Assembly: GCF_039543525.1 (NCBI RefSeq)
Contig: NZ_BAABJX010000017.1
Location: forward strand, 117,047 to 181,046
DNA from: Algivirga pacifica
Lineage (GTDB): Bacteria > Bacteroidota > Bacteroidia > Cytophagales > Flammeovirgaceae
Reading direction: 5' to 3'
Length of the DNA stretch: 64,000 nucleotides
The notes under the pieces are model-generated. The model ran no database searches and was not told where the DNA came from. It was given only the letters and a program-made list of their open reading frames with translations. How positions within the stretch are numbered: position 1 is the first letter of the stretch; every line of letters starts with the position of its first letter. The translations under genes were made by a program, and so were the position numbers. This document shows, piece after piece, positions 1-59,333 of this stretch.

Positions 1-70
1 AATTAATTATTACGTTTTAACTGTATACTTTTTATTGTTTTTAGTTTGTACTATTGTTTTTTATTAAGGG

Positions 71-976: not shown

Positions 977-996
977 AATTCTTATAATAAATACAT

Positions 997-3717: not shown

Positions 3718-3793
3718 GTGTAGGGGCGTAAAATTTAAAGTGATCAGTACTGTTGGAGCATCCTAATTGCTTTAATATATAAATGATTTCAAA

Positions 3794-4717: not shown

Positions 4718-4793
4718 AAGTAATCTTTATTTTGAATAAAGCAGTCTTAATAAGATGTGTTTTTTATAATTAATTTAAACTATAAGATACGTT

Positions 4794-6993: not shown

Positions 6994-7103
6994 GGGTGGC
7001 TTTAATTATCTATGATAATTAGAAAAAGGAGATCATTTTGTGAAAACTGTAGAATATTAAAGGAGATCTTTTATAGGTTATGCTATTAAATTAGAATTTT
7101 TTT

Positions 7104-7928: not shown

Positions 7929-8079
7929 AATTGTTTGCTCTTTGGTGTTAAACACCAGTTATAAATAAAAAAATATAATTGGGCTTGTTCTATATTGGAT
8001 TCTAATTTTATAGTTAGAAGCCAAATCAATATTATATCTTCAGTGTTCTGGATACTTATTAATTAATTTTAGAAATTTC

Positions 8080-10100: not shown

Positions 10101-10115
10101 GGAGGCTTAAATGTT

Positions 10116-27832: not shown

Positions 27833-29182
27833 ATGCAGTTGAGAAAGATATTAGTGAGCGCATTGTTGAGTTCTTCAGTGATATTTTTAGGAGTGTCTTG
27901 TTCAGATCAGTTAGGGCATCAAGAAAAGATTACTGATAACGAGACCGTAGAAGGAGGAGACGAAACCAACAATGGGGGAGATGAAGAAACAGAAGAGGAG
28001 AATAATGGACCTATTGTGGATATAGAATTGGCCGATGACGAGGTACTTTTGGACGGAGAGGTTGTAAAGGTCGATCATTGGATTGAACCATCAGATATTT
28101 ACGTGAGAGCTTCTGAAAAAGCAGACTGGAACAAGCCAGGAACTGTTTTGGCTTTCCGTGAGGGAACTGGACCGAGACCAAGATTGACAATGATTGGTTT
28201 CAAAGGAACTGAAGCAGAACCTATTGTAATTATTAACAAAGATAAGGTAGAGATTGCTTCGGCAGATGCAGGACAACACGCAGTCAAGTTCTTGGATACG
28301 CAATATATTCGTGTATTGGGAAATGGTAATCCGGAGATATATTACGGGATCCATATCTCTGAATCAGGTTCAAGTGGGTTTTCTTTTGATAACTACTCTT
28401 CTGACTTTGAGGTAGCTTATACGCATATTGAGAACACAGGGTTCGCAGGAATTCTAGCCAAGACGGATAATGCCAAGGGATGGACGATGAAGAACGTTTA
28501 TCTGCACCATAACCATATTCATGATGTACATGGAGAAGGGATGTATATTGGACAAACAGCAGTAGACAATGCACACGATATTCAAACATTGAGAGTGCAT
28601 AATAACTTGATCCACGACACAGGGTGGGATTTATTCCAGGTAGCCAACGTTACGGGTGATATTAGGGTATATAATAATACCATGGTAAATGGTGGTGTTG
28701 GAGATGTACCGATGCAGAATCAAGGTTTCCAAATTGGGGACTGGTCTACAGGAGCGTATTATGGTAATATTATCAGCAAGACCAAATCTAGATTCCTTTT
28801 CATTAAGGGGGGACATGATATTATCTTCAGTAATAATTACCTTTCTAGTAGTGGTAATGATGTAGAAGGAGTATTCCTGAAAACTGAAAAGAGAGTTGAT
28901 GCCAATGCAACATTGGAAATCTCTAATAACTTCTTCCGTGATTATGAGGGAGTTTTGTTTAAATCAATGATCTCAGAACATAGAGTGACGATTAGAGACA
29001 ATCAGTTCTCTCCAAGAGGAGAAGCAGAAATGATCACTTATAGTGGTGGAACTCCTGCAGTACACGAGTTTGATAATAACAATGTCACATCTCTTCCTGA
29101 GATTGAACTAGATGATAATTATAAGATTAAGTCTGGCTCATTCTATGATGGTTTGGGGATGGGTTATGAGATAGAGGAATAA
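27833..29182 (+). CDS. Lipoprotein with parallel beta-helix domain (paralog of N-terminal domain of 21826..27354)
   Basis: Lipobox LGVSC, acidic linker, beta-helix repeats (HNNLIHDTGWDLFQVANVTG); FEVAYTHIENTGFAGILAKTD aligns with FEIDHVEVHGSKFAGMMIKTD of the large protein. Confidence 0.7.
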   Translation: MQLRKILVSALLSSSVIFLGVSCSDQLGHQEKITDNETVEGGDETNNGGDEETEEENNGPIVDIELADDEVLLDGEVVKVDHWIEPSDIYVRASEKADWNKPGTVLAFREGTGPRPRLTMIGFKGTEAEPIVIINKDKVEIASADAGQHAVKFLDTQYIRVLGNGNPEIYYGIHISESGSSGFSFDNYSSDFEVAYTHIENTGFAGILAKTDNAKGWTMKNVYLHHNHIHDVHGEGMYIGQTAVDNAHDIQTLRVHNNLIHDTGWDLFQVANVTGDIRVYNNTMVNGGVGDVPMQNQGFQIGDWSTGAYYGNIISKTKSRFLFIKGGHDIIFSNNYLSSSGNDVEGVFLKTEKRVDANATLEISNNFFRDYEGVLFKSMISEHRVTIRDNQFSPRGEAEMITYSGGTPAVHEFDNNNVTSLPEIELDDNYKIKSGSFYDGLGMGYEIEE

Positions 29183-29203
29183 TCACCACAATATCCTATT
29201 GAT

Positions 29204-29235
29204 AAAAAAAGGTCACCAATTGGTGACCTTTTTTA
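29204..29235. terminator. Bidirectional rho-independent terminator
   Basis: A7-GGTCACC-AATT-GGTGACC-T6 between convergent genes. Confidence 0.75.
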
Positions 29236-29862
29236 TTGTAATTTACTGAGTAGGTTTTGCATGGTTTTTAAAGGTGTTCTTGCTGTAGACATATCAGATA
29301 ACCAAGATGGAATTTTTCCACCAGGATCCGTACTGGCTTGATACGTAATGGTAAACCATTCATTTTCTTGTACCAGTTCCCAAAAACCGGAGAACTTGCC
29401 GATACGCGTAAACCCCTTGTGCTCTGGAAGGAAATCAGGAGCAGCTTGTTGGTATACAATCACACTGTCTATACTTTCTTCCATTTGTACATTTAAAATA
29501 AGATCTCGATTACTTACGGGCCAAGGAGCGTCGTAAGTAGTATAATGATAATAAGACTCTTCTTCAGTACTGATTAGCTTGCTTTGATTGCAGGCAGGCA
29601 TCCAGCTTTGATAAGAGTTAAAGTCCAATAAGATTCCTTTTGCTTTTTCCAGATAACTCCCTTTAATGCGGGCGATGACCTTGAATTCCTTGAAGCAAGA
29701 AGAAGGGTGAGGACGGTTGTATACTTCAATGTTATCGGCTTGGTTTACGAGTTCCCATGGTTGGTTTTCCTGGGCTTGTACTTCTAGAGTAGTGAGTAAT
29801 AGTATTAGTAATCCGAGGGTTATTCCGCTGGACTTTTTCATAGTTAATCGAAGGATAGTCAT
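29233..29862 (-). CDS. Secreted START/Bet v1-like lipid-binding domain protein
   Basis: Signal peptide; pattern W..V…VY…FK.…D…Y..W…C..SK.I……YY…DAPWPVSNRD matches bacterial START domains. Confidence 0.45.
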   Translation of the reverse strand: MTILRLTMKKSSGITLGLLILLLTTLEVQAQENQPWELVNQADNIEVYNRPHPSSCFKEFKVIARIKGSYLEKAKGILLDFNSYQSWMPACNQSKLISTEEESYYHYTTYDAPWPVSNRDLILNVQMEESIDSVIVYQQAAPDFLPEHKGFTRIGKFSGFWELVQENEWFTITYQASTDPGGKIPSWLSDMSTARTPLKTMQNLLSKLQ

Positions 29863-30165
29863 TGGTTAATAAATGATGTGCAAGATCCAAAATAACGGAA
29901 AGGAATGTATTCACTGTACTTGTGTAGTGTATTCTATAGAATTGTATTTTACGGTATTAATAGATGTTTTTAACTGAATGTTTAAATGTGATTTTTCAAA
30001 TAAAAAATTGCACAGATCGATTGATTGATTTTTTAATTGTATATAATCTTATTGCATTTTGTAACTATCTTAGAATTTTGTTCGTAATTAGTATTTATGT
30101 GAGATATGGTATTTCTCTTTAGATAGAGAAAGTAGAGATCGAGCTAGACTAAATAACGAATAACA

Positions 30166-30792
30166 ATGGATTTTTTATATGCAGCCTTACAACCAATAAA
30201 CCTTCCATTTACCGCACTAATGGCCTTTGTACTACTTTATTGGTTAAGTGTTTTGGTGGGAGTATTGGATCTGGATACTCTGGATGTTGATCTGGACGTG
30301 GATGCGGATACTGATGTAGATACAGACGTTCATTTGGATGGAAATGCATTTGCACAAGTACTTCACTTTTTCAACGTAGGGGAGATGCCAATCATGATCA
30401 TCTGTAGCTTTTGGTTTCTTTTCATGTGGGTGATTTCCATTTTTTCCAATCATTTTATGGATAACCAAAGTGGAATTGTGGCTATGGGATTAGCTTTTCC
30501 AAATATTGTGTTATCCTTATTCCTGACCAAGTTTTCTACTTGGCCATTTAAGCGTATTTTTCAGCAGATGACACAAGCGGAAGATACCTCTGCTGTGGGT
30601 AAGGAATGTGAGTTGATCTTGCCAGTATCAGCAGAGCGTATGGGACAAGCGAGAGTACAGGCAGGGAGTTATCATCAGACCATTTATGTCAAGACGGCAG
30701 ATGAAAGTATGATTTTACCCAAGGGTAAAAAGGCTTTGGTTATCGCCTATGACGAAACGGAAAAGTGCTATTGGATAGAACCAGTTTTTTAA
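30166..30792 (+). CDS. YqiJ/NfeD-like membrane protein (TM helices + acidic DxD repeats + C-terminal OB-like beta domain)
   Basis: 208 aa (E. coli YqiJ is 209 aa); two TM regions, LDLDTLDVDLDVDADTDVDTDVHLD repeat, C-terminal beta-rich tail; immediately upstream of flotillin. Confidence 0.6.
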   Translation: MDFLYAALQPINLPFTALMAFVLLYWLSVLVGVLDLDTLDVDLDVDADTDVDTDVHLDGNAFAQVLHFFNVGEMPIMIICSFWFLFMWVISIFSNHFMDNQSGIVAMGLAFPNIVLSLFLTKFSTWPFKRIFQQMTQAEDTSAVGKECELILPVSAERMGQARVQAGSYHQTIYVKTADESMILPKGKKALVIAYDETEKCYWIEPVF

Positions 30793-30935
30793 AAATTAGA
30801 ATCTTTAATTACATATTCTTTAATAATAATTTGCTTTCAGAATAAAGTATACGATGGGTGGAGCCTACTCTTCCTTGTAGCGGATACCTATTGCCCATAC
30901 TTTTTTCGCACACCTTTTAACCATTACATTTAAAC

Positions 30936-33065
30936 ATGATACAAGAAGGATTACTCATTAGTGTCGGTATGGTTGTACTGATTGTTTTTGGTACACTAGC
31001 CATGATTGCTAAATTCTATAAGAAGGTACCTCAAGGTAAGGCATTAGTTCGTACCGGTATGGGGGGCTTGAAAGTCTCTTTTCAAGGAATTATTGTTGTG
31101 CCTGTGATCCATAAGTCAGAGGTGATGGATATCTCCCTAAAAACGATTGAAATTAATCGTGAAGGAAAACAAGGCTTGATTTGTAGGGATAATATGAGAG
31201 CAGATATTCGTGTAGCTTTCTATGTTAGGGTCAATAATGATGAGAAAGATGTCGCTAACGTAGCACAGACTATAGGTTGTGAGCGTGCTTCAGATAAAGA
31301 CTTACTGGAAACTATTTTTGAATCCAAGTTCTCGGAAGCCCTGAAGACGGTCGGTAAACGATTTGAGTTTGTAGATCTATACAGCTCAAGAGATGAGTTC
31401 AAGCAAGAAGTAATCAATATTATTGGTACTGATCTAAACGGATATGTTTTAGATGATTGTGCGATAGATTACTTAGAGCAGACTCCTTTAGAATACCTTG
31501 ATCCGGATAATATTCTGGATGCAGAAGGCATCAAGAAAATCACGGACCTTACTGCTGCCCAAAAGATTCAGGCAAACCTGGTGAAGAACGATGAGATGAA
31601 ACGCATCAAGAAGCAGGATGTAGAGGGTAAGGAAGCTGTTTTGGCTCTGGAAAGACAACAAATTGAAGCAGAGGAAAAACAACGCAGGGAGATTGCAGAA
31701 GTGAGGGCAAGGGAACGCTCTTCATCAGAAAGGGTAGAACAGGAAGAACGTTTAAAAGCAGAGCAAGCACGTATACAGTCTGATGAAGAACTGGAAGTGT
31801 TGGAGGAAAATAAGAAAAGACAAGTGCTTGTTGCTGAAAAAAATAAGGAAAGAACGGAAGCGCTTGAAAATGAGCGTATAGAGAAAGAGCGTGAGCTTGC
31901 AATGAATGAGCGTGAGCGTGTGGTAGAGCTAGCGAAAATTGAAAAAGAAAGAGCGCTGGAAGAAGAGCGTAAGAGTATTCAGGATGTTATTCGTGAACGT
32001 ATTGCTGTACAGAAGGCCGTGGTGATGGAGGAAGAGCGTATCAAGGATACACAGGCATTGGCTGAGGCAGATCGTAAGAAAGCTGTGGCCATCAAAGAAG
32101 CAGAGCAAAAAGCAGAAGAAGGGCTAGTGCAGCAAATGAAGGCGGCAGAAGCTGCGAAAGAAGCTGCTAAGTTGATTGCAGAGCAGAAGAAAGTAGAGGC
32201 CGAAACAGAATACCAGACGTCTACACAAAAAGCGGAGTCCATGAAGATTCTGGCAGAGGCGAAATCAGCAGAGATTGCAGCACAAGGATTGGCAGAAGCA
32301 CAAGTAATAGAGGCAAGAGCCGCAGCCAAAGAAAAAGAAGCAGAAGCAGAAGCAAAAGGTATTGCACTCAATGCAGAGGCCGAAGCCGAAGCAAAGAAGC
32401 AAATGGGAGAGGCAGAAGCAAGCAATACAAAACTATTGATGATTGCAGAAGCAGAAGGTATGGAAGTGAAAGCCAAGGCAATCGAGCAGGAAGGACTGGC
32501 AGAAGCATTGGTACTGAAAGAGAAAGCAATGGTGGAGGCACAACGTATAGAAGCCGAAGCCGAAGCGATGAAGCACCTGGACAATGCAACCATTGCCCTG
32601 GAGCAATTCAAGTTGAAACTGAATACAGAGAAAGAAGTAGCCTTGGCACAATTGGAAATGCAGCGTGAGCTTACACAAGCACAGGCAGGTGTAATGGCAG
32701 AGGCTATGAAATCAGCGAATATTGATATTGTTGGTGGAGAAGCAGCCTTCCTTGATCGTATCATGGGATCAATCTCCATGGGTAAATCCGTAGATAAGTT
32801 CATGAGCAATAGTGAGACGATGCAGGAAGTGAAAGCAAATCTGCTGAATGGAGAGAATGGAAATGTGATCGAAAAAGTAAGAGGGTATATTGATCAGTTC
32901 GGCTTGGGTACAGAGGATATCAAAAACCTGAGTATCGCTGCCCTGCTAAACAAGATGTCCAACATGACAGAGGACAAGCAACAACAGAATGTTTTGCAAT
33001 CAGCCTTGAAGAATGCCACTGACATGGGGGTTTCTCAATCACTGGTAGGAGACTGGTTAAGGTAA
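30936..33065 (+). CDS. Flotillin-like SPFH/band-7 protein (YqiK-like) with extended coiled-coil
   Basis: N-terminal TM + SPFH domain (KFYKKVPQGKALVRTGMGG…), then ~400 aa E/A/K/R-rich coiled-coil with EAEAEA repeats. Confidence 0.85.
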   Translation: MIQEGLLISVGMVVLIVFGTLAMIAKFYKKVPQGKALVRTGMGGLKVSFQGIIVVPVIHKSEVMDISLKTIEINREGKQGLICRDNMRADIRVAFYVRVNNDEKDVANVAQTIGCERASDKDLLETIFESKFSEALKTVGKRFEFVDLYSSRDEFKQEVINIIGTDLNGYVLDDCAIDYLEQTPLEYLDPDNILDAEGIKKITDLTAAQKIQANLVKNDEMKRIKKQDVEGKEAVLALERQQIEAEEKQRREIAEVRARERSSSERVEQEERLKAEQARIQSDEELEVLEENKKRQVLVAEKNKERTEALENERIEKERELAMNERERVVELAKIEKERALEEERKSIQDVIRERIAVQKAVVMEEERIKDTQALAEADRKKAVAIKEAEQKAEEGLVQQMKAAEAAKEAAKLIAEQKKVEAETEYQTSTQKAESMKILAEAKSAEIAAQGLAEAQVIEARAAAKEKEAEAEAKGIALNAEAEAEAKKQMGEAEASNTKLLMIAEAEGMEVKAKAIEQEGLAEALVLKEKAMVEAQRIEAEAEAMKHLDNATIALEQFKLKLNTEKEVALAQLEMQRELTQAQAGVMAEAMKSANIDIVGGEAAFLDRIMGSISMGKSVDKFMSNSETMQEVKANLLNGENGNVIEKVRGYIDQFGLGTEDIKNLSIAALLNKMSNMTEDKQQQNVLQSALKNATDMGVSQSLVGDWLR

Positions 33066-33068
33066 GGT

Positions 33069-33295
33069 GTTGAATCGTTGAATTGTTTAATGATAACTGG
33101 TCGTAGGCTGATAACTGGTCGTAGCGTCCACGCTGATAACTGGTCGTAGGCTCCAGCCTACGACCCACCAGCGATTTCACGGAGGCTCCAGCCTCCAGTT
33201 TCACATTACTGGTCTTTGCGTCCTCGCAAAGACCAAACCATCAATTGAGCGTCCACGCTCAAGAATGCTACCATTCTACCAATAAAACACATCGC
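33069..33295. repeat. Composite intergenic repeat (GTTGAATCGTTGAAT arm, 3x GATAACTGGTCGTAG, 2x GCGTCCACGCT, 10-bp palindrome GGTCTTTGCG/CGCAAAGACC)
   Basis: Direct and inverted repeats visible in sequence; shares the 15-mer arm with MITE copies elsewhere in window. Confidence 0.6.
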
Positions 33296-33303
33296 ATAAC
33301 GCT

Positions 33304-36300
33304 ATGGAAACAACAAGTACTACTCCCTCAGCTACCGAAAATTCCCAGATCTTAGATGCTGGGACCTATGAAATACTCCGAAAACGATTAAATGTACAGG
33401 CAGATGGCTTACAGCAGCGTTTACAGCAGTTAAACGAAGCCCGGAAAGAAGTCTTCGGGGCGATGGAAGCTCGCTTGATTGCCACCGAGCGTATTGCCAC
33501 GGACCATAACTGTGTGCCTCGTGATATGGTGCCTTTGTCCAATGGCTTGTTTCTGTTTGGGTATAATGTGCACATGGGCTTAAAGCAAGAGGTGGCACTC
33601 AAGGATGTTTTTAGTATTTATGAATATAGAAAAGAAGACCATTCCTTTCACCCCAAAGAGCTAGGAGGATTAAGTGTAGAGGCATTTCACAAAGACTTTA
33701 CAGAGCTCTATAAGTATTATAAGGATACCGTATTCTCCAAGTTTTTTGTGCAGGGACCACATCTGTACATGGTTTTCCAGATTGGAAAAACGGCTAAAGA
33801 TATTAAGGCCTTCAAGTGGTTACTACAAGCTGACGGATTGACGTACGTGGATAACCGTAGCGACCACGAAATACAGTACCCCCGACAGCATGAGTTTGAG
33901 TGGAAACGAACCTCCCGAGATTTTCATAGGGAAGGGGCACACCCTCATATCTCTATTGAGGATAGGGTATTCGTAGAAACTGTAGGAGGTGACCTGACCA
34001 TAAAGGTGGAAGACAATACGGATACTGGAGAGGGAATCTATGCAGAGGAAGTAGAGCTAAAGGAACAGACACTGGATGATGCGGATATTTACTATGCGGA
34101 TCTGGGAAATCTGATTCTGTTGAAGATTAGACCATTTCAGGAAAAACAATGGCGTTATATCGTATTCAATGAGAAGCTGAAAACAGCGAAACGCATTGAT
34201 GCCATAGAAGATGCTTGTGTCCTTTTGCCGGATGATCAGGGAATTGTTTTTTCCAATGGATATTACCTGCAAACAGGAGATTATAAAGAATTTGATAGTG
34301 AGCTCACGGGGTTACATTTTGAGCGTCGGATGCATTCTCCCAATGGAGAAGATCATTTGTACGTATTTTACCAACCGGTATTAGGGGAGTATGTACTCTT
34401 GTCCTATAATGTCATTGCACAAGAAATAGAGGCACCTATCGTATGTCATGGTTTTTCTTTTTTCCGAAATGGTGAACTGGCCTATTTCAAGACCGATAAT
34501 GAACCAAAGAAAAACCATGGGATACAGGTATGGCAAACGCCTTACTGTCACCCTGATTTTGTGCAACCTACGGAGCATGCCGATAGCTTCTTATTTAAGT
34601 TGGGAAATAAGGAGATCGTAAGGGGGATGGCCGATGGATATGCCTTATTAAACCTTTGTCGAAAAGAGGATTCTTATGAGGGATTGTACGCAGATATTGC
34701 GAAGCAAGCCATGTCTCTCACCGATAACTACTATTGGACAGCCAAGGAAGAGGCTTTTACCTTACAGGCCTCTTTGGAGGAAATTCGTACTACAGCCACC
34801 ACGGCGATTGAGGAGTTTGAAAAAGTAGAACGTCAACGAAAGGAAGCAGCCGTAAAAACCAACGCTTTTGAAGAGCAAGCCACACAGCTGCTTCGAAAAG
34901 TAGAACGTCACCATTATCAACATATCGATGATTTTGTCCAAAGTCTAATTTCATTAAGAACCCTTAGAGGAGAAGCGATTTCCTTGAAGGAGGTACGTTA
35001 TATTGACTTGGCATTGCTGGAGGGGTATGAGAAGAAACTTTCTGAGAAAACAGACCTACTTTCCCAAAAGTGCGTATCCTTTCTACTGGAAGAGGAAGCT
35101 CTGCAACCTTATCGAGATAAGGTGATTACCGTACAGGAAGCAACGGAACAAGTAGATAAAGTAACCGAGGCAGATGCAACGGCCAATGAGATTGCCAATG
35201 TGGGAGGAGAGTTGGAGTTGATGATTGAGATCGTCTCCAACCTTAAGATTGAGGATGCGACACAAACCACTCGTATCATTGACGATATTTCGGATATCTA
35301 TGCACAGCTCAACCACGTAAAAGCTCGCTTGAAGGCCAAGCGTAAAGAGTTACTGGGGACGGAGGCGGTTGCTGAGTTCAAGGCCCAAATGAAGTTGTTG
35401 GGGCAATCTGTCGTGAACTACCTGGATGTAGCAGATACCCCTCAGAAATGTGAGGAGTACCTGACCCGTATCATGGTGCAACTGGAAGAGGTAGAAGGAA
35501 AGTTTACGGACTTTGAGGAGTTTTTGGAAGAACTTTCGGCTAAGAGAGAGGAAGTATACTCTGCCTTTGAGACCCGAAAGACCCAGTTACAAGAAGCGAG
35601 GAATAAGCGTAGCGCCGCTATGGTTGCTGCAGCGGAACGTATCCTGAAAGGAATTGGCAATAAGCTAAAAGGCTTCAAGGAAATCGCAGAGATCAATGCC
35701 CACTTTGCTGCCGATATGATGGTGGATAAGGTAAGGGACTTGATTGAGAAGCTGCATGAAATGGAGGAATCCAACAAGGCAGAGGACTTACAGAGTCAGC
35801 TGAAAACCTTAAAGGAGGACGCCGTCCGACAATTGAAAGACAAGCAAGACCTTTTTGTGGAGGGGGAGAATGTCATCAAACTGGGACGTCACCACTTTGC
35901 CATCAATACCCAGGAACTTGATGCTTCTATTGTGCAGAAGGGGGAAGATATGTTCTATCATCTGACGGGTACCCAGTTTTATGAAAAGATAGAGGACAAG
36001 CCATTACTGGATACCCGTTCCGTATGGAACCAAAGTCTTCCTTCCGAAAATCAAGAGGTGTATAGGGGAGAGTTCTTGTCCTATCAGATGCTTACAGCCA
36101 TGATAGGACAGCAGTTGCCGTATACGGTACAAGACTTTCTGGAGATGGAGACGAGTGAGCAACTGAAGTCGGTACAAACGTTTATGGCACCTCGTTATCA
36201 AGAAGGCTATAACAAAGGGGTACATGATCAGGATGCTTTACAAATACTAAAAGTACTCTTGACGATTTATCAACAGATAGGCTTACTGAGATATGGCCCA

Positions 36301-38235
36301 GCGAGCAGGGCTTGTGCTTATCTGTTCTGGGAAAAATTCTTGAGCAAAGAAGAAAAGCAACTGTTCAAAAATAGAATTGAAGGAGCAGGACTGATCTTGC
36401 AGGTATTTCCAGATGCGCAGGAATATAAAGAGCTGTTGTTTGATCTGGAAACAGGGATCGCGACTTTCCTTGCAGAGACCGATTTATTTGAAACCACAGT
36501 ACTTAAACAGGCAGCCGAATACCTTTTCCATCAGTTGGTCACTACGGATCATTTTGTAAGTAGTAAAGAGGCTTATACTTGCTATGTTGATTTCTATAAA
36601 TACCTAAAATTAAAGAGAGTAGAGAAGGATTTTGAGGGTGCGCTTAAAAAATTAAAACAGGCGAAAATAGTACATCAAGTAGATTTACTTAGAGGATGGG
36701 TCAATGCTTTTATGACCACATTGGATACTTATAGTAGGGAAGAGTTGTCTCCGTATAAAGAGGAGATCGTCACTTTGCTATTATCTGAAAAGGTAGAGGC
36801 TTCCAATGTGCAGGAAGTAGTGGTACGTGAGACGGTAAAAGGATTGGCAGGGGATCATTCCGTGATTCAACAAGGAGAATACTTGTTGGACTATAATGCT
36901 TTTATAGACCGCTTGATGACCTATGAGTTGCGAACATTACCACAGTACCATGCTTATTTACAAGTGAAAAATGAGTTGGTGACGACCTTTAAGAAGGCAG
37001 TAAAGTTGGAGAGCTTTAAGCCAAGGGTATTATCTTCTTTTGTTCGTAATAAACTGATCAACGAAGTATACCTTCCATTGATGGGTGATAACCTGGCGAA
37101 GCAGATGGGTACGGTAGGAGAGAACAAGCGTACCGATTTGATGGGACTGTTATTATTATTATCTCCTCCGGGATATGGAAAAACAACTTTAATGGAGTAC
37201 GTAGCCAGTAGGTTGGGACTCATATTTATGAAGATCAATGGTCCGGCAATAGGGCATCAAGTGACTTCCTTGGACCCTTCTGAAGCACCGAATGCCACAG
37301 CGAAAGAGGAGCTGGAAAAGCTTAATTTGTCCTTTGAAATGGGGGATAATGTAATGATTTACCTGGATGATATTCAGCACTGTAATCCGGAGTTGCTACA
37401 GAAATTCATCTCCCTTTGTGATGGGCAGCGAAAGATTGAGGGAGTCTATAAAGGCATTACTCGCACCTATGATTTTAGAGGAAAGAAAGTGTGTGTAGTT
37501 ATGGCAGGGAACCCTTATACAGAAACGGGAGAGAAGTTCCAGATTCCGGATATGTTGGCGAACCGTGCCGATACCTATAACCTGGGAGAGATTATCGGTG
37601 ATTCGGATGAGGCCTTTAAGTTGAGTTATATAGAGAACTCCATTACCTCCAATCCTACGTTAAGTAGTTTGAATACGGTGAGTAAGGAAGACCTATACAA
37701 CTTGATACAAGTGGCCCGTACCGGAAGTAGAGAAGGAATTACGTTTGAGAGTAACTTTTCTGGAGATGCCGTGGATGAGTATGTCAATGTATTGAAGAAG
37801 ATGCTGAAAGTACAAGACGTAGTACTTAAGGTGAACCAGCAATACGTACGTTCTGCCGCTCAAGAGGATGCTTATCGAACAGAGCCAGCCTTTAAGTTGC
37901 AAGGGTCTTATCGAAATATGAATAAGCTGGCAGAGAAGGTCGTTCCCGTGATGAATGAAGAAGAGTTGGACACCTTGTTGCTATCCCATTATGAGGGAGA
38001 GTCCCAAACATTGACGACCGGAGCAGAAGCCAATATGCTTAAGTTCAAAGAAATGATGGGGTGGTTGACGGAGGGAGAAGCCCAACGTTGGGAGAGTATC
38101 AAGCAGCAGTTCTGTGAGCAACTGAAGGTGAATACCTTGGGAGACCAGGCACAAACACAGGAACTCATGCAGCAAATCAAGGCATTGACCATAGGGTTGC
38201 AAGGCATTCAAAATGCCATCGAAAATAAAAAATAG
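33304..38235 (+). CDS. Giant (1643 aa) protein with single C-terminal AAA_5/MoxR-class ATPase module; N-terminal ~1200 aa unrecognised (beta-rich then helical/coiled-coil)
   Basis: Walker A LLLLSPPGYGKTTLMEY, Walker B VMIYLDDIQ, sensor-1 KVCVVMAGNPY, Arg in PDMLANRADTYNL; uninterrupted 4.9-kb ORF. Confidence 0.7.
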   Translation: METTSTTPSATENSQILDAGTYEILRKRLNVQADGLQQRLQQLNEARKEVFGAMEARLIATERIATDHNCVPRDMVPLSNGLFLFGYNVHMGLKQEVALKDVFSIYEYRKEDHSFHPKELGGLSVEAFHKDFTELYKYYKDTVFSKFFVQGPHLYMVFQIGKTAKDIKAFKWLLQADGLTYVDNRSDHEIQYPRQHEFEWKRTSRDFHREGAHPHISIEDRVFVETVGGDLTIKVEDNTDTGEGIYAEEVELKEQTLDDADIYYADLGNLILLKIRPFQEKQWRYIVFNEKLKTAKRIDAIEDACVLLPDDQGIVFSNGYYLQTGDYKEFDSELTGLHFERRMHSPNGEDHLYVFYQPVLGEYVLLSYNVIAQEIEAPIVCHGFSFFRNGELAYFKTDNEPKKNHGIQVWQTPYCHPDFVQPTEHADSFLFKLGNKEIVRGMADGYALLNLCRKEDSYEGLYADIAKQAMSLTDNYYWTAKEEAFTLQASLEEIRTTATTAIEEFEKVERQRKEAAVKTNAFEEQATQLLRKVERHHYQHIDDFVQSLISLRTLRGEAISLKEVRYIDLALLEGYEKKLSEKTDLLSQKCVSFLLEEEALQPYRDKVITVQEATEQVDKVTEADATANEIANVGGELELMIEIVSNLKIEDATQTTRIIDDISDIYAQLNHVKARLKAKRKELLGTEAVAEFKAQMKLLGQSVVNYLDVADTPQKCEEYLTRIMVQLEEVEGKFTDFEEFLEELSAKREEVYSAFETRKTQLQEARNKRSAAMVAAAERILKGIGNKLKGFKEIAEINAHFAADMMVDKVRDLIEKLHEMEESNKAEDLQSQLKTLKEDAVRQLKDKQDLFVEGENVIKLGRHHFAINTQELDASIVQKGEDMFYHLTGTQFYEKIEDKPLLDTRSVWNQSLPSENQEVYRGEFLSYQMLTAMIGQQLPYTVQDFLEMETSEQLKSVQTFMAPRYQEGYNKGVHDQDALQILKVLLTIYQQIGLLRYGPASRACAYLFWEKFLSKEEKQLFKNRIEGAGLILQVFPDAQEYKELLFDLETGIATFLAETDLFETTVLKQAAEYLFHQLVTTDHFVSSKEAYTCYVDFYKYLKLKRVEKDFEGALKKLKQAKIVHQVDLLRGWVNAFMTTLDTYSREELSPYKEEIVTLLLSEKVEASNVQEVVVRETVKGLAGDHSVIQQGEYLLDYNAFIDRLMTYELRTLPQYHAYLQVKNELVTTFKKAVKLESFKPRVLSSFVRNKLINEVYLPLMGDNLAKQMGTVGENKRTDLMGLLLLLSPPGYGKTTLMEYVASRLGLIFMKINGPAIGHQVTSLDPSEAPNATAKEELEKLNLSFEMGDNVMIYLDDIQHCNPELLQKFISLCDGQRKIEGVYKGITRTYDFRGKKVCVVMAGNPYTETGEKFQIPDMLANRADTYNLGEIIGDSDEAFKLSYIENSITSNPTLSSLNTVSKEDLYNLIQVARTGSREGITFESNFSGDAVDEYVNVLKKMLKVQDVVLKVNQQYVRSAAQEDAYRTEPAFKLQGSYRNMNKLAEKVVPVMNEEELDTLLLSHYEGESQTLTTGAEANMLKFKEMMGWLTEGEAQRWESIKQQFCEQLKVNTLGDQAQTQELMQQIKALTIGLQGIQNAIENKK

Positions 38236-38298
38236 AACGTAACTTCTGTACGTTTTGCGATTATATATTTGGTTCGTAGGAATGTGATTGTCAACGAT

Positions 38299-38501
38299 GA
38301 ATAAATAACTGTCATACTACCAACTAGCTTTGTTGAATCCGTTACACGGCGTCTCGAATTGAGCTTTGCTCGTTGAATCGTTGATTGAAACCTTACTAAG
38401 GTAATCAAACAACAATTCAACTCGAATCAACGAATCAACTCACCGAAGGTGAAATTCAACGATTCAACAAAGCTGACTAGTAGTATGATAGTTAATTATT
38501 C
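38299..38501. mobile_element. MITE-like element, copy 1 (TIR GAATAAATAACTGTCATACTAC / GAATAATTAACTATCATACTAC)
   Basis: ~22-bp terminal inverted repeats plus subterminal GTTGAATCGTTGAT / ATTCAACGATTCAAC arms; near-identical organisation at 59118..59333. Confidence 0.6.
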
Positions 38502-38542
38502 ACCCTATAGAGCAAATTGTTTTTTAACCAATTAATTTTTTC

Positions 38543-40492
38543 ATGAATTATATACAAAGGGGACTACTTACATTGGTAGGAGTTTTTTCCCTAATCACCC
38601 ACAGTATGGCCGACTCCGGCGATAAACCCCAATATGCTGTCAGTAAAATTGATCCTGAACTCAAAAAAGGAAAATATTCCGTGGTCAGGGTGGATGAGAT
38701 GGAGCTAGACGTAATTACACCCACAAAGGCTCTTTTCAAAACCCATTATGTCATCACGATCTTCAATAAGAAAGCAGAAGATTTAGCGGAGCATGCCTTT
38801 ACCTATGACAACGAAACAGTATTATCCTTTGCAGAGGCCAGGGTATATGATCAAAATGGTGATTTGCTGGATCGTATCAAGGCTAAGGACATGAAGGATG
38901 AGGGGACTTACAGACATACTTCTTTGTTTGATGATAACCGTAGAAAAGTAGTTGACCTGAAGCGAACGACCTATCCCTATACGGTAGAGTTTGTAGAGGA
39001 GAAAGTGCTGCATTCGACCATGTTTTTACCTTCTTGGGTTGGATTCTCTGATCGCAAGATGGGGGTGGAATCTTCAATATATAAGGTAACGGCTCCTGCA
39101 GGAGTATTGAAGTACAAACAGAATGAAATGGCGCCAGAGCCTGTGATTTCCAAACAAGAAGGAAAAGAAACCTACGTATGGAAGCTAGAGCAGGAAGAAG
39201 GGATACGAAAGTTTGAAAAGCGCTACCCAATAGCTGAACAGCTGCCTAGCGTAACACTTGCAGCCAATGTTTTTGCAATGGATGGCCATCAGGGAGATTA
39301 TACGTCATGGAAGACCTTTGGAAAGTGGATCTGGGGGCTAAACAAAGGACAGGACGTCGTTCCAGAAGAATTAAAATACACCATTCATAGCGTAACCGAT
39401 ACGTTACAGACCTCTAGAGAGAAAGCAAAAGCCGTTTACGAATTTGTGCAGCAAAATACCCATTATGTAAACTTGTCATTAGGTATAGGAGGTTTCAAGC
39501 CTTTTAGCGTAGAGCAAGTATACCGTACTGGGTATGGAGATTGTAAGGCGCTGACAAATTATACCTATTCATTATTGAAAGAAGTGGGGGTGCCCTCTGT
39601 TTATACTTTGGTAAGGGCTGGGCGTGATGCTAATCCTATCGATACGACATTTGTTGCTAGTCAATTTAATCATGTTATCCTATCTGTTCCCTTAGACAAA
39701 GATACGGTGTTTCTGGAGTGTACCAGTCAGGACGTACCTTTCGGATTTATTGGTGGGTTTACTGATGACCGTGATGTACTATTTATTACAGAAGAAGGAG
39801 GGGAATTAGGTAGAACAAAGCGATATACCCAAGAAGAGAATGTATGGAGCTCAAAAATGGAAGTGTTGCTCGATGAGGAAGGAGTTGCCAGAAGTACCTA
39901 TTGGTTAAATGCCACTGGAATGATGTATGATAATTTTTACTTCATGTTAGGGGTAAAAGAAAGAGAAAAGCAAATCAAGTTTATTAATCGTTTGCTGGAG
40001 GTGAAAAGTATGGAGATTGGTGAGATCGAGATGGAAGAGGAACGGGATGTAATCCCCACATTCCACTTGAAAACAGATTTTGAATCCAGGTTAATGGTGG
40101 AGAAAAGTGTGGGACGATTTTTCATTACGCCCAACCAAGTCAATGCGCTGACGAGCACGCCTAAAAAAGCCAAGAACAGAAAGAACCCTTTCTATCAGTA
40201 CAATGAAGATATAGAAGTAGATACCGTGGTATGGCAGCTGCCAGAGGGGTATAGTTTAGAAAATAAGCCTGCCGATATTCAGTTGAAATGTCCGATGGGT
40301 ACCTTTGAGGCAACCTATAACGTGGAGGGAAGCCAACTAACATATACTAGAAAACTGGCACTTCAAAAAGGGGTATATGCCCCCGAACTATACAACGAAT
40401 ATGTGGAGTTCCTGAGAAGCGTCAAAAAAGCAGACCGAGAAAAGGTGACCTTTCACAAACAAGAAGAAGACTCACCTAAAAAGGATTTATAA
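38543..40492 (+). CDS. Secreted DUF3857/transglutaminase-like/DUF3858-type protein
   Basis: Signal peptide; transglutaminase-like core YRTGYGDCKALTNYTYSLLKEVGVP with Cys; 649 aa typical of this Bacteroidota family. Confidence 0.55.
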   Translation: MNYIQRGLLTLVGVFSLITHSMADSGDKPQYAVSKIDPELKKGKYSVVRVDEMELDVITPTKALFKTHYVITIFNKKAEDLAEHAFTYDNETVLSFAEARVYDQNGDLLDRIKAKDMKDEGTYRHTSLFDDNRRKVVDLKRTTYPYTVEFVEEKVLHSTMFLPSWVGFSDRKMGVESSIYKVTAPAGVLKYKQNEMAPEPVISKQEGKETYVWKLEQEEGIRKFEKRYPIAEQLPSVTLAANVFAMDGHQGDYTSWKTFGKWIWGLNKGQDVVPEELKYTIHSVTDTLQTSREKAKAVYEFVQQNTHYVNLSLGIGGFKPFSVEQVYRTGYGDCKALTNYTYSLLKEVGVPSVYTLVRAGRDANPIDTTFVASQFNHVILSVPLDKDTVFLECTSQDVPFGFIGGFTDDRDVLFITEEGGELGRTKRYTQEENVWSSKMEVLLDEEGVARSTYWLNATGMMYDNFYFMLGVKEREKQIKFINRLLEVKSMEIGEIEMEEERDVIPTFHLKTDFESRLMVEKSVGRFFITPNQVNALTSTPKKAKNRKNPFYQYNEDIEVDTVVWQLPEGYSLENKPADIQLKCPMGTFEATYNVEGSQLTYTRKLALQKGVYAPELYNEYVEFLRSVKKADREKVTFHKQEEDSPKKDL

Positions 40493-40534
40493 TTAGAGCT
40501 CATTCAATTTTTTTTCATTTTTAATTTTAACCAA

Positions 40535-42517
40535 ATGCGATTAATCATTACACTGCTTTTATTATGCTTTTTATCTACGGCTTTTGGGCAGTTTAAAACG
40601 GCTAAATGGGGTAGGCTATTTAAAGAAGATGTAGAATATACTACATGTGAATTTGAGCCTGAAGCTAAGGCGGTTATTTTGTTTCATGTTGGGAAGTATA
40701 ATTTCATAGGTTCAAGTAATCAAATACATACAAATATCTATAAGCGTATAAAGCTTTTAACTGATGACGCTGAAGAGTACGCTAATATTGTTATTCCTAT
40801 TTATACTAAGGATGATACAGAACGCATTTCAGGACTGCATGCTCAAACGTTGGTTGTAGACCCCAATGGTAAATTGCAGAAGTATACTCTAGATAAAAAA
40901 GATATATATTATACGAAGCTAAATGAGAATATAACTTTAGTGAAATTCACTTTTCCTCAGGCACAGAAAGGGGCAATTTTAGAGTATAAATATCGAGTAA
41001 GAGACAAGAATATTGTTATGCCTGATCCATGGTATTTTCAAAGTGAGAAGATGCCTACAGAGTTCAGCCATATTAAATTTACTTACCCAGATTACTTGGG
41101 GTATAAGATAAAGACACAAGGTCATCGCTTATCCTTAAAGTATATGGGTAAGAATAATATTAATGCTTGGGAGTTAGAGAAAATACCTTCAATGAAGGAT
41201 GTGGATTTTCTTTTTTGCGAGGATGATTATCGACTCCAGCTTTCAATTCAGCTTAATTCCTACAGGACAAATCAAGGCTACGACAAGGAATTCGGTAATA
41301 ATTGGAATCAAATAGCGAAATCAACACGTCTAGCAGACGCATTTTATAGTTACAATCGGAAAGGGAAATACAAAAAGATTGTAGAAGAGATTGTGCAAGA
41401 TGATGATTCTGAGCAAGTAAAAGTGTCAAAGCTTTATGCTTATGTAACAACACACTTCAAATGGGACGAGAAGTATGATCTTTACCCTTCACAATCTTTA
41501 TCAGAGTTGCTAGTAAGTAAAAAAGGAAGCTCCGCAGAACTGAACGCCTTGATGAAAGGCTTGTGCGAGGTGGCAGGTTTACAGGCTGAGTGGGTGGCGA
41601 ACAGTACGCGTACACATGGAATGATTTTCGAACATATTCCTATGTTTGATGCTTTCAATAACCTATTGGCAAGTGTTGTTGTGGATGGGAAACAATGGTA
41701 TATAGATACCACACATCCGAAACTTCCATGGAACTTGCCTCACCAAAACTTGCTAACGACTAAGACATTTGCTTTTGAACGCTCAGGAAGCTTCTGGGGA
41801 GAGGTAGCGACGGATGAGAGAAGTATGGTGAATATGTACTTTCAGATGGACTATACAGGAGAGGAACCAACCTGTAAGGCCAAAATTAGCTACCAAGGAT
41901 ACGATGCTTACGATAAGAGAAAAGAGCTGTTGAAAGAAAAAGAAGCACTGGAAGAAGAAGAGGATGAGGACGAAGACGAGGAGGAAGATGAGGAGGAAGA
42001 TGAGGAGGATGCAACCGAGGACGAAGATGATGAAGAGTTTATGCTGCAAGGGTTTGAGGTTGTGAATGCTGAATTGTCTGACCTTGAAAATGTGAATGAG
42101 GATGTAACCCTTAGCTTGGAGTGGAAAGCAGACCCATTGACTGAGGAAACAGGAAACATCTACCTGGAGGCCGTAGCACCTACGATATTCAAGGATAACC
42201 CTTTTACACAAGAACAACGATTATTCCCAATAGAATTTGATAGCCCGTGGCATTTTAATTATGTAATGACGGTTAAAATACCGAAAGGGTATCGTATCGC
42301 AGATCAACCCAAAGGAACAGCTGCCCGACTGCCAGCGAATGTAGGAAAGGTAGTCTATGTGGCTAATGAGAATGCGGGGATTCTAACGGTACGTATGAAG
42401 GTAGATATCAATAATACGTATATGCATCAGGATTTCTATCCAAACCTGAAGCAGTTCTTTGATTTACTGTTGGATTACAGTAACAAGAAAATTGTGATGG
42501 AGAAAGTAGATATATAA
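40535..42517 (+). CDS. Secreted DUF3857-like paralog with internal poly-acidic stretch
   Basis: Signal peptide; same overall size and architecture as upstream gene; EEEEDEDEDEEEDEEEDEEDATEDEDDEE insert; 42-bp gap from upstream gene. Confidence 0.45.
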   Translation: MRLIITLLLLCFLSTAFGQFKTAKWGRLFKEDVEYTTCEFEPEAKAVILFHVGKYNFIGSSNQIHTNIYKRIKLLTDDAEEYANIVIPIYTKDDTERISGLHAQTLVVDPNGKLQKYTLDKKDIYYTKLNENITLVKFTFPQAQKGAILEYKYRVRDKNIVMPDPWYFQSEKMPTEFSHIKFTYPDYLGYKIKTQGHRLSLKYMGKNNINAWELEKIPSMKDVDFLFCEDDYRLQLSIQLNSYRTNQGYDKEFGNNWNQIAKSTRLADAFYSYNRKGKYKKIVEEIVQDDDSEQVKVSKLYAYVTTHFKWDEKYDLYPSQSLSELLVSKKGSSAELNALMKGLCEVAGLQAEWVANSTRTHGMIFEHIPMFDAFNNLLASVVVDGKQWYIDTTHPKLPWNLPHQNLLTTKTFAFERSGSFWGEVATDERSMVNMYFQMDYTGEEPTCKAKISYQGYDAYDKRKELLKEKEALEEEEDEDEDEEEDEEEDEEDATEDEDDEEFMLQGFEVVNAELSDLENVNEDVTLSLEWKADPLTEETGNIYLEAVAPTIFKDNPFTQEQRLFPIEFDSPWHFNYVMTVKIPKGYRIADQPKGTAARLPANVGKVVYVANENAGILTVRMKVDINNTYMHQDFYPNLKQFFDLLLDYSNKKIVMEKVDI

Positions 42518-42554
42518 TTAGAAATTAATGACGCTATATTTTATTTAGATCATA

Positions 42555-42595
42555 AAAAAGTGCGCTAACGACTTCTCGTTAGCGCACTTTTTTGT
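42555..42595 (+). terminator. Strong rho-independent terminator
   Basis: A6-GTGCGCTAACG-ACTTCT-CGTTAGCGCAC-T6, 11-bp perfect stem. Confidence 0.8.
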
Positions 42596-42764
42596 AATTA
42601 TGCATTAGAGTTTGTTTGGAATGGTGATTAGAGGAATTTTCTTTCTAAATCAGTATTCCAGATAAGATCTTATGTCCTTGAGAAATAAAGGATTACTATA
42701 CTGCGGGGTACAGCCCTGTGATACAATTAACCAACCCAACAGCTTTAAAAAAGCCCAAGTAACC

Positions 42765-43727
42765 ATGAAATCCTTAAGCTTATGTTTTGTCTTAAGCCTT
42801 CTTGTGAGTATAGAAGGCGTTGGACAAAATCAAACCAATGATGTAGCCTTAAATATTAACAAAATACCGTTTCATAGTATCAAAATTCACGGAGATGGAA
42901 ATTATATAATTCAGTATCATCCAATAGCAGCCATAACGATGGACGCTCGGGTGAGAAACTTCGTGGAACTCAACCATCAGGATGGCACACTTGCTATACG
43001 ATTAAAAGATAATATCCCTCAGCCTTTATTAAAGCACAAAGCGATACTCTTGGAGTTACCAGATTTACAAAAACTGGAAATCATAGGGGATGGCGATGTT
43101 CGCTTACAAGAGTGCCTGGGAAAATCCTCACTCACCATGCATAAATTTGGAAATGGGGATCTGATAGGTAAGGTTATCGCGGAGGTGTTACTTGTCGGAA
43201 TTAATGGAGAAGGCATTCACGACTTATCAATTCATGCTAAAGAAGCACGCCTGGTACAGAAAGGAGTATCTGAGGTCACTATGAAAACCGAAGGTGGTTA
43301 TACGATAATAGAGAAGTATGGAACTGGTAGGTTGCAGTTAAACTCCAAGGTAGAGAAGGTGCAAGTGATCGTACAAGATGAAGGAACTATTGACTTGGAT
43401 CTTGAGGCAAAGGAAGCTGGTCTACGATTAGCTAATGAGGCTAATTTGTCGGGTAAGATGAAAGCCATGGAGCTAACACTAAACAAAAGCAAGGAGGGAG
43501 ATGTGCAATTGAGTGGAGAAGTAGAGCAAATGAATCTACAGGTTTCAGGAGAAGGTCATGTAAATTTGGAAGGCTTGAAAGTGAACCATTGCCTACTGCA
43601 TAAAAAAGGAAGTGGGAATCTGAAAATGTATATTCTTCAAACGTTGTCCATGGAAATCAAGGGGAAAGGCTCTGTGCATTACTTGGGGAATCCACAAGTA
43701 TCTAAGCTCTTGGTACATCAGGAATAG
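42765..43727 (+). CDS. Secreted DUF2807-like (putative adhesin head / GIN-domain) protein
   Basis: Start chosen at internal Met giving signal peptide MKSLSLCFVLSLLV; repeated G.G.V.L/G…I.G.G beta-solenoid-like units. Confidence 0.4.
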   Translation: MKSLSLCFVLSLLVSIEGVGQNQTNDVALNINKIPFHSIKIHGDGNYIIQYHPIAAITMDARVRNFVELNHQDGTLAIRLKDNIPQPLLKHKAILLELPDLQKLEIIGDGDVRLQECLGKSSLTMHKFGNGDLIGKVIAEVLLVGINGEGIHDLSIHAKEARLVQKGVSEVTMKTEGGYTIIEKYGTGRLQLNSKVEKVQVIVQDEGTIDLDLEAKEAGLRLANEANLSGKMKAMELTLNKSKEGDVQLSGEVEQMNLQVSGEGHVNLEGLKVNHCLLHKKGSGNLKMYILQTLSMEIKGKGSVHYLGNPQVSKLLVHQE

Positions 43728-43834
43728 GTTGTTGAAAAATTTACAATGAATACATCAGGGTTTCAGGGTTGAGATCCTTTTTTTATTCAATAACGAAGAT
43801 ATTAATAGACTTAAAGTGTGATTTATACAATTTA

Positions 43835-43860
43835 CCTCCCTGTATGCAGGGAGTTTTTCA
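43835..43860 (+). terminator. Rho-independent terminator
   Basis: CCTCCCTG-TATG-CAGGGAG-TTTTT. Confidence 0.6.
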
Positions 43861-44250
43861 TTTTTATTTGTCTATATGATAATTTTGTTGTGATAAATAA
43901 AATATATGTAAAGGTCTTTTTGTTGAAATATTTTGTAATAAAAATGAATTAAAGTAAAATTTTATCATAAAAATCTTCTTTTAATACTTCCTGATCCCTG
44001 AATACAGTGATTTGTAGTGATTTAATAGGTGTATATTTTTTATGTGAGGATTAATTTTTTATAAATTATGTATATCAAAATTAAAAGTAACCCATTTCAA
44101 AACCCTTTCCGATAGGTTTTGAATATTCATTGAAGTACACTTATTATTTACTTTATCGACATGCATTGACAAAAAAGGCCCGTTTTGTCAACTGATCTCC
44201 TATTGCCTTTATTGAACGCATGCATGTCTTAAAACCCACAACAAACACTT

Positions 44251-46418: not shown

Positions 46419-46557
46419 ATGTTGAATCGTTGAATCGTTGAATTAAGCTTTGCTTGTTGATTCGAGTTGAACCGTTGATTGGCCTCAATAAATATCAATC
46501 AACGGTTCAACTCGATTCAACTTATCGAAGATAAAATTCAACGATTCAACGATTCAA
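46419..46557. mobile_element. MITE-like core element with perfect 23-bp TIR GTTGAATCGTTGAATCGTTGAAT
   Basis: Left end 46419-46441 and right end 46535-46557 are exact reverse complements; internal sequence matches core of copies at 38299 and 59118. Confidence 0.6.
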
Positions 46558-46766
46558 CTAAACATCCCCAGATTAGTGTGATTCCGCTTTTTTTACAGAA
46601 ACATGTCTTTTTCTTTGCTGACTTTATTATTTTAGGCGGCAGAAATAAAAAATGCTACTAGAGACCTATTAAGTACAATACTGGTCTTTTGGAGATAAGT
46701 TCTTCCTGCTCAGAGGAAGAGCTTTTACTTTAAAATATTTTTTTTACCGGAAGGTCACAAAACTGA

Positions 46767-59117: not shown

Positions 59118-59333
59118 GAATATTTATCCGTCACACTACCAAATCGCTTTGTTGAACCGTTGAATCGTTGAATTAAGCTTCGCTCGTTGATTCGAGTTGA
59201 ACTGTTGATTGATAGTTATATGTCCCCATACAACGAATCAACTCGAATCAACGAGCGAAGCTCAATTCAACTCTCCGAAGGAGAAATTCAACGATTCAAC
59301 AGAGCTGGTTAGTAGTATGTCGGTTATTTATTC
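59118..59333. mobile_element. MITE-like element, copy 2 (TIR GAATATTTATCCGTCACACTAC / GAATAAATAACCGACATACTAC)
   Basis: Same architecture as copy at 38299..38501, including GTTGAA(C/T)CGTTGAATCGTTGAAT arm and CGAAGGAGAAATTCAACGATTCAAC. Confidence 0.6.

Follow-up and report, generated by a model that had tools for sequence, protein, structure and literature searches.

PspA-associated operons with the gene order CesT/Tir-PspA-YqiJ/YuaF-Band-7/flotillin-'beta-propeller+coiled-coil+AAA+' were described by Ravi et al. 2024 (mSystems, PMC11237479) in a purely computational study, where the YqiJ/YuaF protein is reported to possess three transmembrane segments (3TM). Abbreviated operons, which encode flotillin, YqiJ/YuaF and sometimes the ATPase and are devoid of the CesT/Tir-PspA dyad, are widespread according to the same source. 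Here we consider a 64,000-nucleotide stretch of the Algivirga pacifica genome, referred to below as the window, whose positions 30166–38235 encode a YqiJ-like membrane protein, a flotillin and a giant DUF3686-DUF7902-AAA+ ATPase (collectively, the triad). The window shares with the described operon the three proteins, their order and their orientation, and the architecture string given for the Dokdonia donghaensis example ANH61663.1 is the same as the one found here. It differs from the full operon in having no adjacent CesT/Tir-PspA dyad, divergent helix-turn-helix (HTH) gene or PLD-like gene. By the definition of Ravi et al., it contains the three-gene operon and not the full, dyad-containing form.

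We read 30166–38235 as the A. pacifica copy of this conserved three-gene module, in the abbreviated form of the PspA-associated operon. The identity and boundaries of the module are assigned with high confidence; the whole reading, including the role proposed below, has a probability of roughly 0.6. A preliminary description of the stretch, made from the sequence and its open reading frames (ORFs), had treated the three genes and two downstream transglutaminase-like genes as an undescribed arrangement, but the publication cited above already covers the gene set, including its three-gene form. The triad has been described in silico, and the Algivirga locus is an ordinary abbreviated member of a module known from comparative genomics, adding little as a discovery.

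The membrane-protein genes and the gene neighbourhood of the ATPase

The first gene of the triad lies directly upstream of the SPFH gene and encodes a protein whose N-terminal segments are hydrophobic; it also has an acidic loop rich in (L/V)D and ends in a soluble domain. E. coli YqiJ matches it end to end (BLASTP E=4e-7, 24% identity, 204 residues), in agreement with its earlier assignment as YqiJ/NfeD-like. The Pfam family YqiJ_N falls just under its cutoff (E=1.2e-4, 22.7 bits, cutoff 23), and NfeD (PF01957) was unreported in the Pfam scan even at E≤10.

The second protein starts with a membrane anchor, which is followed by a divergent SPFH domain and a long coiled coil rich in E and A; its C-terminal domain is conserved. 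It matched no Pfam family at E≤10, including Band_7 (PF01145) and Flot (PF15975), and nothing was returned by NCBIfam or single-sequence PDB searches; Band_7 matches only two of 20 flotillin orthologues, the window protein not among them. The sole PDB match of the flotillin profile is QmcA (E=0.0046). The identity of the second protein, first proposed from the letters of the sequence, is settled by the profile-profile comparison with E. coli YqiK: a profile of the 20 orthologues (A5) aligned by hhalign with a probability of 100% (E=2.9e-41) over 388 columns, covering the membrane anchor, SPFH domain and coiled coil. Judged from these alignments, the second gene encodes a divergent, longer flotillin subtype.

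A homologue search for the ATPase in a word-indexed database produced more than 5300 matches, and a search with the N-terminal 700 residues gave 951 clusters at 50% identity, most full-length matches being ~1600–1900 residues long. We assembled 83 loci (80 fetched genome loci and three from exact-protein look-ups) sampling Bacteroidota, Planctomycetota, Verrucomicrobiota, Desulfobacterota, Kiritimatiellota, Clostridia and Chitinispirillaceae, and looked for partners by jackhmmer searches of their six-frame ORFs, the window proteins serving as queries. In the 80 fetched loci the ATPase is 46–56% identical over ~1630 residues. Sufficient upstream DNA (≥3.5 kb) was available for 67 of the 83 loci; in 64 of these the gene immediately preceding the ATPase, on the same strand, encodes a flotillin, and flotillin and YqiJ are both present in 58. 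The flotillin-ATPase spacer is between -54 and 2346 bp long at the orthologous loci. The expectation that homologues of the 1643-residue protein would be linked to SPFH genes was thereby borne out, while the linkage to DUF3857 genes expected alongside it appeared in just 2/83 loci. These counts support a functional tie of the ATPase to the NfeD-like and flotillin genes.

PspA is encoded nearby in 20 of the 83 loci, all from Bacteroidota and amounting to about half of the loci of this phylum; CesT/Tir occurs in 18–19 loci, and an HTH gene divergent from CesT-PspA in 18. Pontibacter and flavobacterial loci reproduce the full CesT/Tir-PspA-containing operon. All-against-all clustering of the neighbourhoods recovered as recurrent families only the ATPase, flotillin, YqiJ, PspA, CesT and the HTH protein, and no recurrent family downstream of the ATPase.

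Several lineage-specific features were seen at these loci. The divergent HTH_3/HTH_19 protein (~260 residues; L002 3957–4757 and 17 other Bacteroidota loci) is probably the regulator listed by Ravi et al. as 'cHTH+Protease'. Several Verrucomicrobiota loci have flotillin and no detectable YqiJ. In the Limibacter locus (L001), a DUF1707+LiaF-like_C protein is encoded upstream of the triad (4326–5153) and a TerB protein directly downstream (14992–15366), and ORFs of 79 and 138 residues (6317–6556 and 8937–9353), which have no counterpart in the window, lie between the triad genes. At the metagenomic P0005 locus (L089) a DUF6922/AbiEii toxin-antitoxin-like pair is found directly upstream of the ATPase at 9039–9893, with fragmented ORFs at the expected flotillin position; either an insertion or faulty assembly may account for this arrangement.

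Defence systems frequently include large nucleoside triphosphatases that carry repeat-domain sensors. On this general ground the locus could be an anti-phage system or, as suggested earlier, a conflict module. Infection would then be detected by the ATPase, and the effector that disrupts the membrane would be the flotillin/NfeD pair; the AbiEii/DUF6922 pair of P0005 and the integrase, group II intron and transposase genes found downstream in Pontibacter also fit this idea. However, none of the five proteins matched PADLOC-DB 2.0 at E≤0.1, which led us to set the defence reading aside, and the window neighbours are ordinary chromosomal genes. The identity over nearly the whole ATPase, reaching ~80% in the core, fits a housekeeping or stress function better than an arms race; the architecture is stable, with no variable effector domains among the matches listed, and the recurrent partners PspA and CesT are envelope-stress proteins. 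Literature searches combining SPFH and anti-phage found nothing relevant. We consider such a role improbable.

Domains and predicted structure of the giant ATPase

The third protein of the triad is 100% identical to A. pacifica P0001, named 'DNA repair ATPase' by NCBI. The AAA module had been regarded as its only recognisable part, with some 1200 N-terminal residues left unassigned. This view does not hold: residues 36–477 correspond to Pfam DUF3686 (PF12458; E=1.7e-192, 640 bits, cutoff 25) and residues 598–682 to DUF7902 (PF25472; E=7e-27, 93.9 bits, cutoff 26). The 1643-residue product fits the family definition (DUF3686, DUF7902 and a C-terminal AAA domain in a length of ~1600–1900 residues), and its homologues share the architecture. 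No transmembrane segment was detected (Kyte–Doolittle KD19 maximum 1.16).

Structure prediction, proposed earlier for the N-terminal part, indicates a divergent beta-propeller followed by long helices and then the AAA+ core. The helical region holds DUF7902, a small beta domain (residues ~857–895) and a poorly conserved helical domain (residues ~921–1160). An AlphaFold2 (AF2) model of residues 690–1643 (predicted local distance difference test, pLDDT, 83.8) displays coiled-coil helices, the small beta domain, the helical domain and the AAA+ core, with a pre-sensor-1 beta-hairpin (residues ~1377–1390) located after the Walker B helix and before the strand of sensor-1; no helix-2 insert or hairpin is predicted in the core. 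Conservation is distributed unevenly: the AAA+ core (residues 1251–1450, window 37054–37653) keeps 77–81% identity to the window protein in 78 orthologues, which represent at least seven phyla, in sharp contrast to residues 1001–1200 of the helical domain in the same protein, which are just 23–33% identical.

The four ATPase motifs are as first read: Walker A G1290-YGKTT (37171–37188), Walker B Y1353-LDDIQ (37360–37377), sensor-1 V1398-VMAGNP (37495–37515) and L1418-ANRAD with R1421 (37555–37572). All are invariant across 16 and 59 homologues.

The orthologues also show lineage-specific additions. The Desulfobacterales protein P0099 carries ankyrin repeats and reaches 1906 residues, and many Planctomycetota and Verrucomicrobiota ORFs run ~100–350 residues beyond the end of the match. 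Such differences in the ATPase or the module occur at loci L004 (10001–15721), L009 (9944–15484), L018, L037, L065 and L080–L083.

The assignment of the C-terminal module to the MoxR/dynein-class family AAA_5 has fared unevenly. AAA_5 remains below its cutoff (20.3 vs 22 bits, E=5.7e-4), and PF00004 scores better (29.7 bits, cutoff 21.2). PDB sequence and profile searches align only ~40 P-loop residues, to p97/Cdc48, Rix7, NSF and RuvB, so that no AAA+ clade can be assigned from sequence. The structural neighbours agree with the original proposal and make it plausible: the best Foldseek matches of the core are dynein AAA, CbbQ2, NorQ, Lon, ClpA and RuvB with similar E-values, spastin ranking lower, and the best matches normalised to target length (TMt) are NorQ (up to 0.61) and CbbQ2 (0.52).

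The database name raises the question of whether the giant protein is a DNA-repair ATPase that stands beside flotillin for unrelated reasons. Besides the name and the Pfam description of DUF3686, weak RuvB_N and RuvB P-loop matches would favour this. However, the RuvB similarity amounts to ~45 P-loop residues and 20 bits against a cutoff of 282–299, neither Pfam nor the predicted structure reveals a nucleic-acid-binding domain, and neighbourhood clustering yielded no recurrent repair gene. The linkage is instead near-universal to membrane-protein genes, and the name is unsupported by any paper found. We regard a repair role as scarcely credible.

The transglutaminase-like pair, spacers and flanking genes

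The five ORFs lie on the plus strand exactly where they had first been placed (Table 1). Among the Pfam families anticipated for them, DUF3857 and Transglut_core pass their cutoffs; NfeD, Band_7 and AAA_5 are absent or below cutoff.

Table 1. Positions of the triad, its parts and the adjoining features in the window.
Feature	Position	Strand	Basis or remark
YqiJ/YuaF-type short NfeD-like membrane protein, 208 aa	30166–30792	+	ORF; triad gene 1
YqiK-like flotillin, 709 aa	30936–33065	+	ORF and sequence; triad gene 2
Flotillin-to-ATPase spacer, 238 bp, GC 0.49	33066–33303	.	Repeat insertion, no part of the conserved module
DUF3686-DUF7902-AAA+ protein, 1643 aa, soluble	33304–38235	+	Pfam; triad gene 3
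Divergent beta-propeller, aa ~57–411 (DUF3686 core), preceded by a helix, aa 19–51	33472–34536	+	
Long helical/coiled-coil region, aa ~429–1282	34588–37149	+	AF2 models, Pfam, conservation profile
AAA+ module, aa 1283–1643	37150–38232	+	Motifs, AF2 model, Foldseek
Inverted-repeat element in the 307-bp ATPase/transglutaminase-like gap	38298–38502	.	Member of a dispersed intergenic repeat family
Secreted DUF3857-transglutaminase-core-DUF3858 protein	38543–40492	+	Pfam and sequence; adjacent unit, outside the conserved module
Second secreted DUF3857-transglutaminase-core protein	40535–42517	+	Pfam and sequence; adjacent unit, outside the conserved module
Intrinsic-terminator-like hairpin closing the transglutaminase-like pair	42560–42593	+	Read directly from the sequence

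The two transglutaminase-like proteins exceed the DUF3857 and Transglut_core cutoffs and both carry signal peptides, as opposed to the cytosolic ATPase. As noted previously, the first has the motif GYGDCKALTNY, in which a catalytic-type Cys is retained, and the second has a poly-E/D insert; in the latter the Cys position looks, by eye, to be replaced by Ser/Ala (GSSAELNAL). They had been called paralogous, and their common Pfam architecture is in line with this, but there is no significant pairwise similarity (BLASTP E=5), and recent paralogy was rejected.

Genes of this type occur near the ATPase only in the window and in its closest relative, Limibacter, where they lie 7 kb from the ATPase behind three opposite-strand genes; they were not found beside the triad in the next relatives Sediminitomix, Flexithrix and Rapidithrix. 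On the basis of the neighbourhood counts, the Limibacter layout and the absence in these three relatives, we restrict the system to the triad. The pair with its terminator is a separate secreted-protein unit and a lineage-local neighbour of the triad.

The wider proposal made at first was that all five genes form one system, in which the scaffold and the ATPase deliver or regulate two secreted transglutaminase-like effectors. The common strand, the single strong terminator located only past the fifth gene and the presence of the Limibacter pair within 7 kb of the ATPase could be cited in its favour. The rarity of the pair near the ATPase and its absence in the three relatives speak against it, as do the opposite-strand genes intervening in Limibacter, the lack of anything conserved downstream of the ATPase, the signal peptides of the transglutaminase-like proteins, and the gap of 307 bp that precedes the first of their genes and contains a repeat element as well as two TAnnTTTG motifs. 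A five-gene system is very improbable.

The terminator proposed for the fifth gene is real as a sequence feature: a hairpin GTGCGCTAACGA-CTTC-TCGTTAGCGCAC with a 12-bp stem is followed by T6 and preceded by an A-run. The consensus scanner overlooked this hairpin, and its sigma-70 and terminator counts were no better than in shuffled sequence. The Bacteroidota -7 motif TAnnTTTG is absent upstream of all three triad genes; its two occurrences in the ATPase/transglutaminase-like gap are too weak for a promoter call.

Insertions taken earlier for miniature inverted-repeat transposable elements (MITEs) are real repeat elements but only putative MITEs. The flotillin-ATPase spacer, richer in GC than its neighbours (0.26–0.35), contains at 33089–33260 three tandem GATAACTGGTCGTAG units, found nowhere else in the window, and several perfect 11–12-bp GC-rich hairpins, e.g., GGTCGTAGGCT/AGCCTACGACC. 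The element in the gap after the ATPase gene is an inverted repeat with 42-nt arms, 86% complementary, and has the motif GTTGAATCGTTGAAT in common with four other intergenic sites in the window. An Rfam scan of 29000–44500, the flotillin-ATPase spacer included, gave no match.

The GTTGAATCGTTGAAT motif defines a dispersed intergenic repeat with 12 matches in the window (≤3 mismatches) against 0.29 expected, at 33067–33091, 38370–38470, 46419–46560 and 59149–59302. The matches are often inverted pairs 100–140 bp apart, resembling small palindromic elements downstream of genes.

Elsewhere in the window, positions 1–11213 carry a low-GC (28–34%), co-directional polysaccharide cluster with genes for RmlC, RmlD, a Wzx-like flippase, a Wzy-like polymerase, glycosyltransferases and three sulfotransferases, followed by a Wzi-like gene at 14137–15627; the gene content suggests production of a sulfated surface polysaccharide. 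Beyond the transglutaminase-like pair, a DUF2807 (GIN-domain) protein (42672–43727) precedes a 718-residue protein (44251–46407) that has both SLH domains and a Peptidase_C39_2/C70 papain-like domain, a combination seen here in a member of the Bacteroidota.

Proposed role and comparison with known systems

Several points weigh against our reading of the locus and of its role. Repeats are inserted in the spacers, and scanning assigned the triad neither a promoter nor a terminator, so co-transcription is only putative here. Three of the 67 loci (L014, L024 and L032) have no adjacent flotillin but unrelated genes upstream. A jackhmmer search of the 64-kb window found no PspA or CesT ORF, and the divergent HTH and PLD-like genes were also not found. 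The clade signals of the ATPase are split, Pfam and PDB sequence matches leading to classical AAA/Cdc48 and RuvB P-loops and Foldseek to MoxR, dynein and Lon. Finally, literature searches retrieved no paper naming DUF3686, PF12458 or DUF7902 or linking 'DNA repair ATPase' with flotillin, and no experimental study of any family member was found, so any mechanism rests on context and analogy.

Solved cages of SPFH and NfeD proteins are known, e.g., QmcA-YbbJ and flotillin. By analogy with them, YqiJ and the flotillin would form a cage or microdomain at the cytoplasmic face of the inner membrane. The ATPase may oligomerise through its AAA+ module and dock on the scaffold or on PspA by means of the propeller and helical arms, and ATP would be spent to assemble, disassemble or extract proteins from membrane-stress assemblies. 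The triad is most likely a cytoplasmic-face membrane-stress module, and we infer that the probable task of its soluble ATPase is to remodel assemblies of flotillin or PspA, or the clients of these assemblies. Remodelling of the scaffold specifically is a tentative proposal. We further speculate that the DUF3686 propeller-AAA+ protein could be an ATP-driven remodeller of bacterial membrane-repair scaffolds and a functional analogue of Vps4: an AAA+ ring on long helical arms, docked on flotillin/YqiJ cages, would disassemble or recycle flotillin and/or PspA (ESCRT-III-like) polymers. This more specific version is doubtful.

The main alternative to scaffold remodelling is action on clients, the ATPase being a MoxR- or Lon-like chaperone or unfoldase that would mature, extract or refold membrane proteins within a flotillin microdomain. 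Its structural neighbours include MoxR-type maturases (CbbQ, NorQ) and the unfoldases Lon and ClpA, the modelled propeller could bind clients, and FtsH with HflK/C sets a precedent for SPFH proteins working with an AAA+ protease. However, neither a VWA partner nor a protease domain nor a conserved gene for a client appears in the neighbourhood, and the data do not separate action on clients from remodelling of the scaffold. A client role appears rather unlikely. A parallel is offered by S. aureus, where FloA-NfeD is reported to stabilise unfolded proteins (PMC11222466).

Whether its substrate is the scaffold or a client, the ATPase is a concrete candidate for the way in which ATP is put to use on membrane-stress scaffolds of flotillin or PspA in bacteria. 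The family is noteworthy for being very large, for its ~50% identity along 1600 residues in at least seven phyla and for being nearly always joined to a flotillin gene. It already has a Pfam name and an in-silico description, and makes a good experimental target. Correction of the public-database name, which has no support here, would be worthwhile.

E. coli YqiJ-YqiK and B. subtilis YuaF(NfeD2)-FloT are the known flotillin pairs closest to the first two genes, which are homologous to YqiJ and YqiK and arranged alike. Unlike in the window, E. coli yqiJK is followed by sibD/ibsD, with no ATPase gene downstream; the window flotillin is ~150 residues longer, possesses its own conserved C-terminal domain and largely escapes Pfam Band_7.

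With the MoxR-type AAA+ proteins CbbQ, NorQ and RavA the ATPase shares the pattern NP...G...P..L.NR in the sensor-1/Arg region and the structural matches to NorQ and CbbQ2. It differs from them in the sub-cutoff AAA_5 score, the lack of a helix-2 insert in the model and the ~1280 residues of propeller and helical domains preceding the AAA+ module. Unlike MoxR-type systems, it has no recurrent VWA partner gene in the neighbourhood clustering.

A Vps4-like regulator of PspA appears to be absent in bacteria according to a 2025 review (PMC7619361). The functional analogy with ESCRT-III/Vps4 of archaea and eukaryotes is speculative and draws on the proximity of a polymer of the PspA/ESCRT-III superfamily to an AAA+ ATPase in about half of Bacteroidota loci. 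Differences are the lack of a MIT domain in the window ATPase, its apparent position outside the classical clade and the absence of the PspA link in the window and in most phyla.

In HflK/C-FtsH, an SPFH cage is genetically and functionally coupled to an AAA+ machine. FtsH is a membrane-anchored AAA protease of the classical clade, whereas the window ATPase is soluble, has no protease domain and is structurally MoxR/dynein/Lon-like. What the Algivirga module has in common with it is an SPFH scaffold that is linked genetically, and probably in function at the inner membrane, to an AAA+ ATPase.

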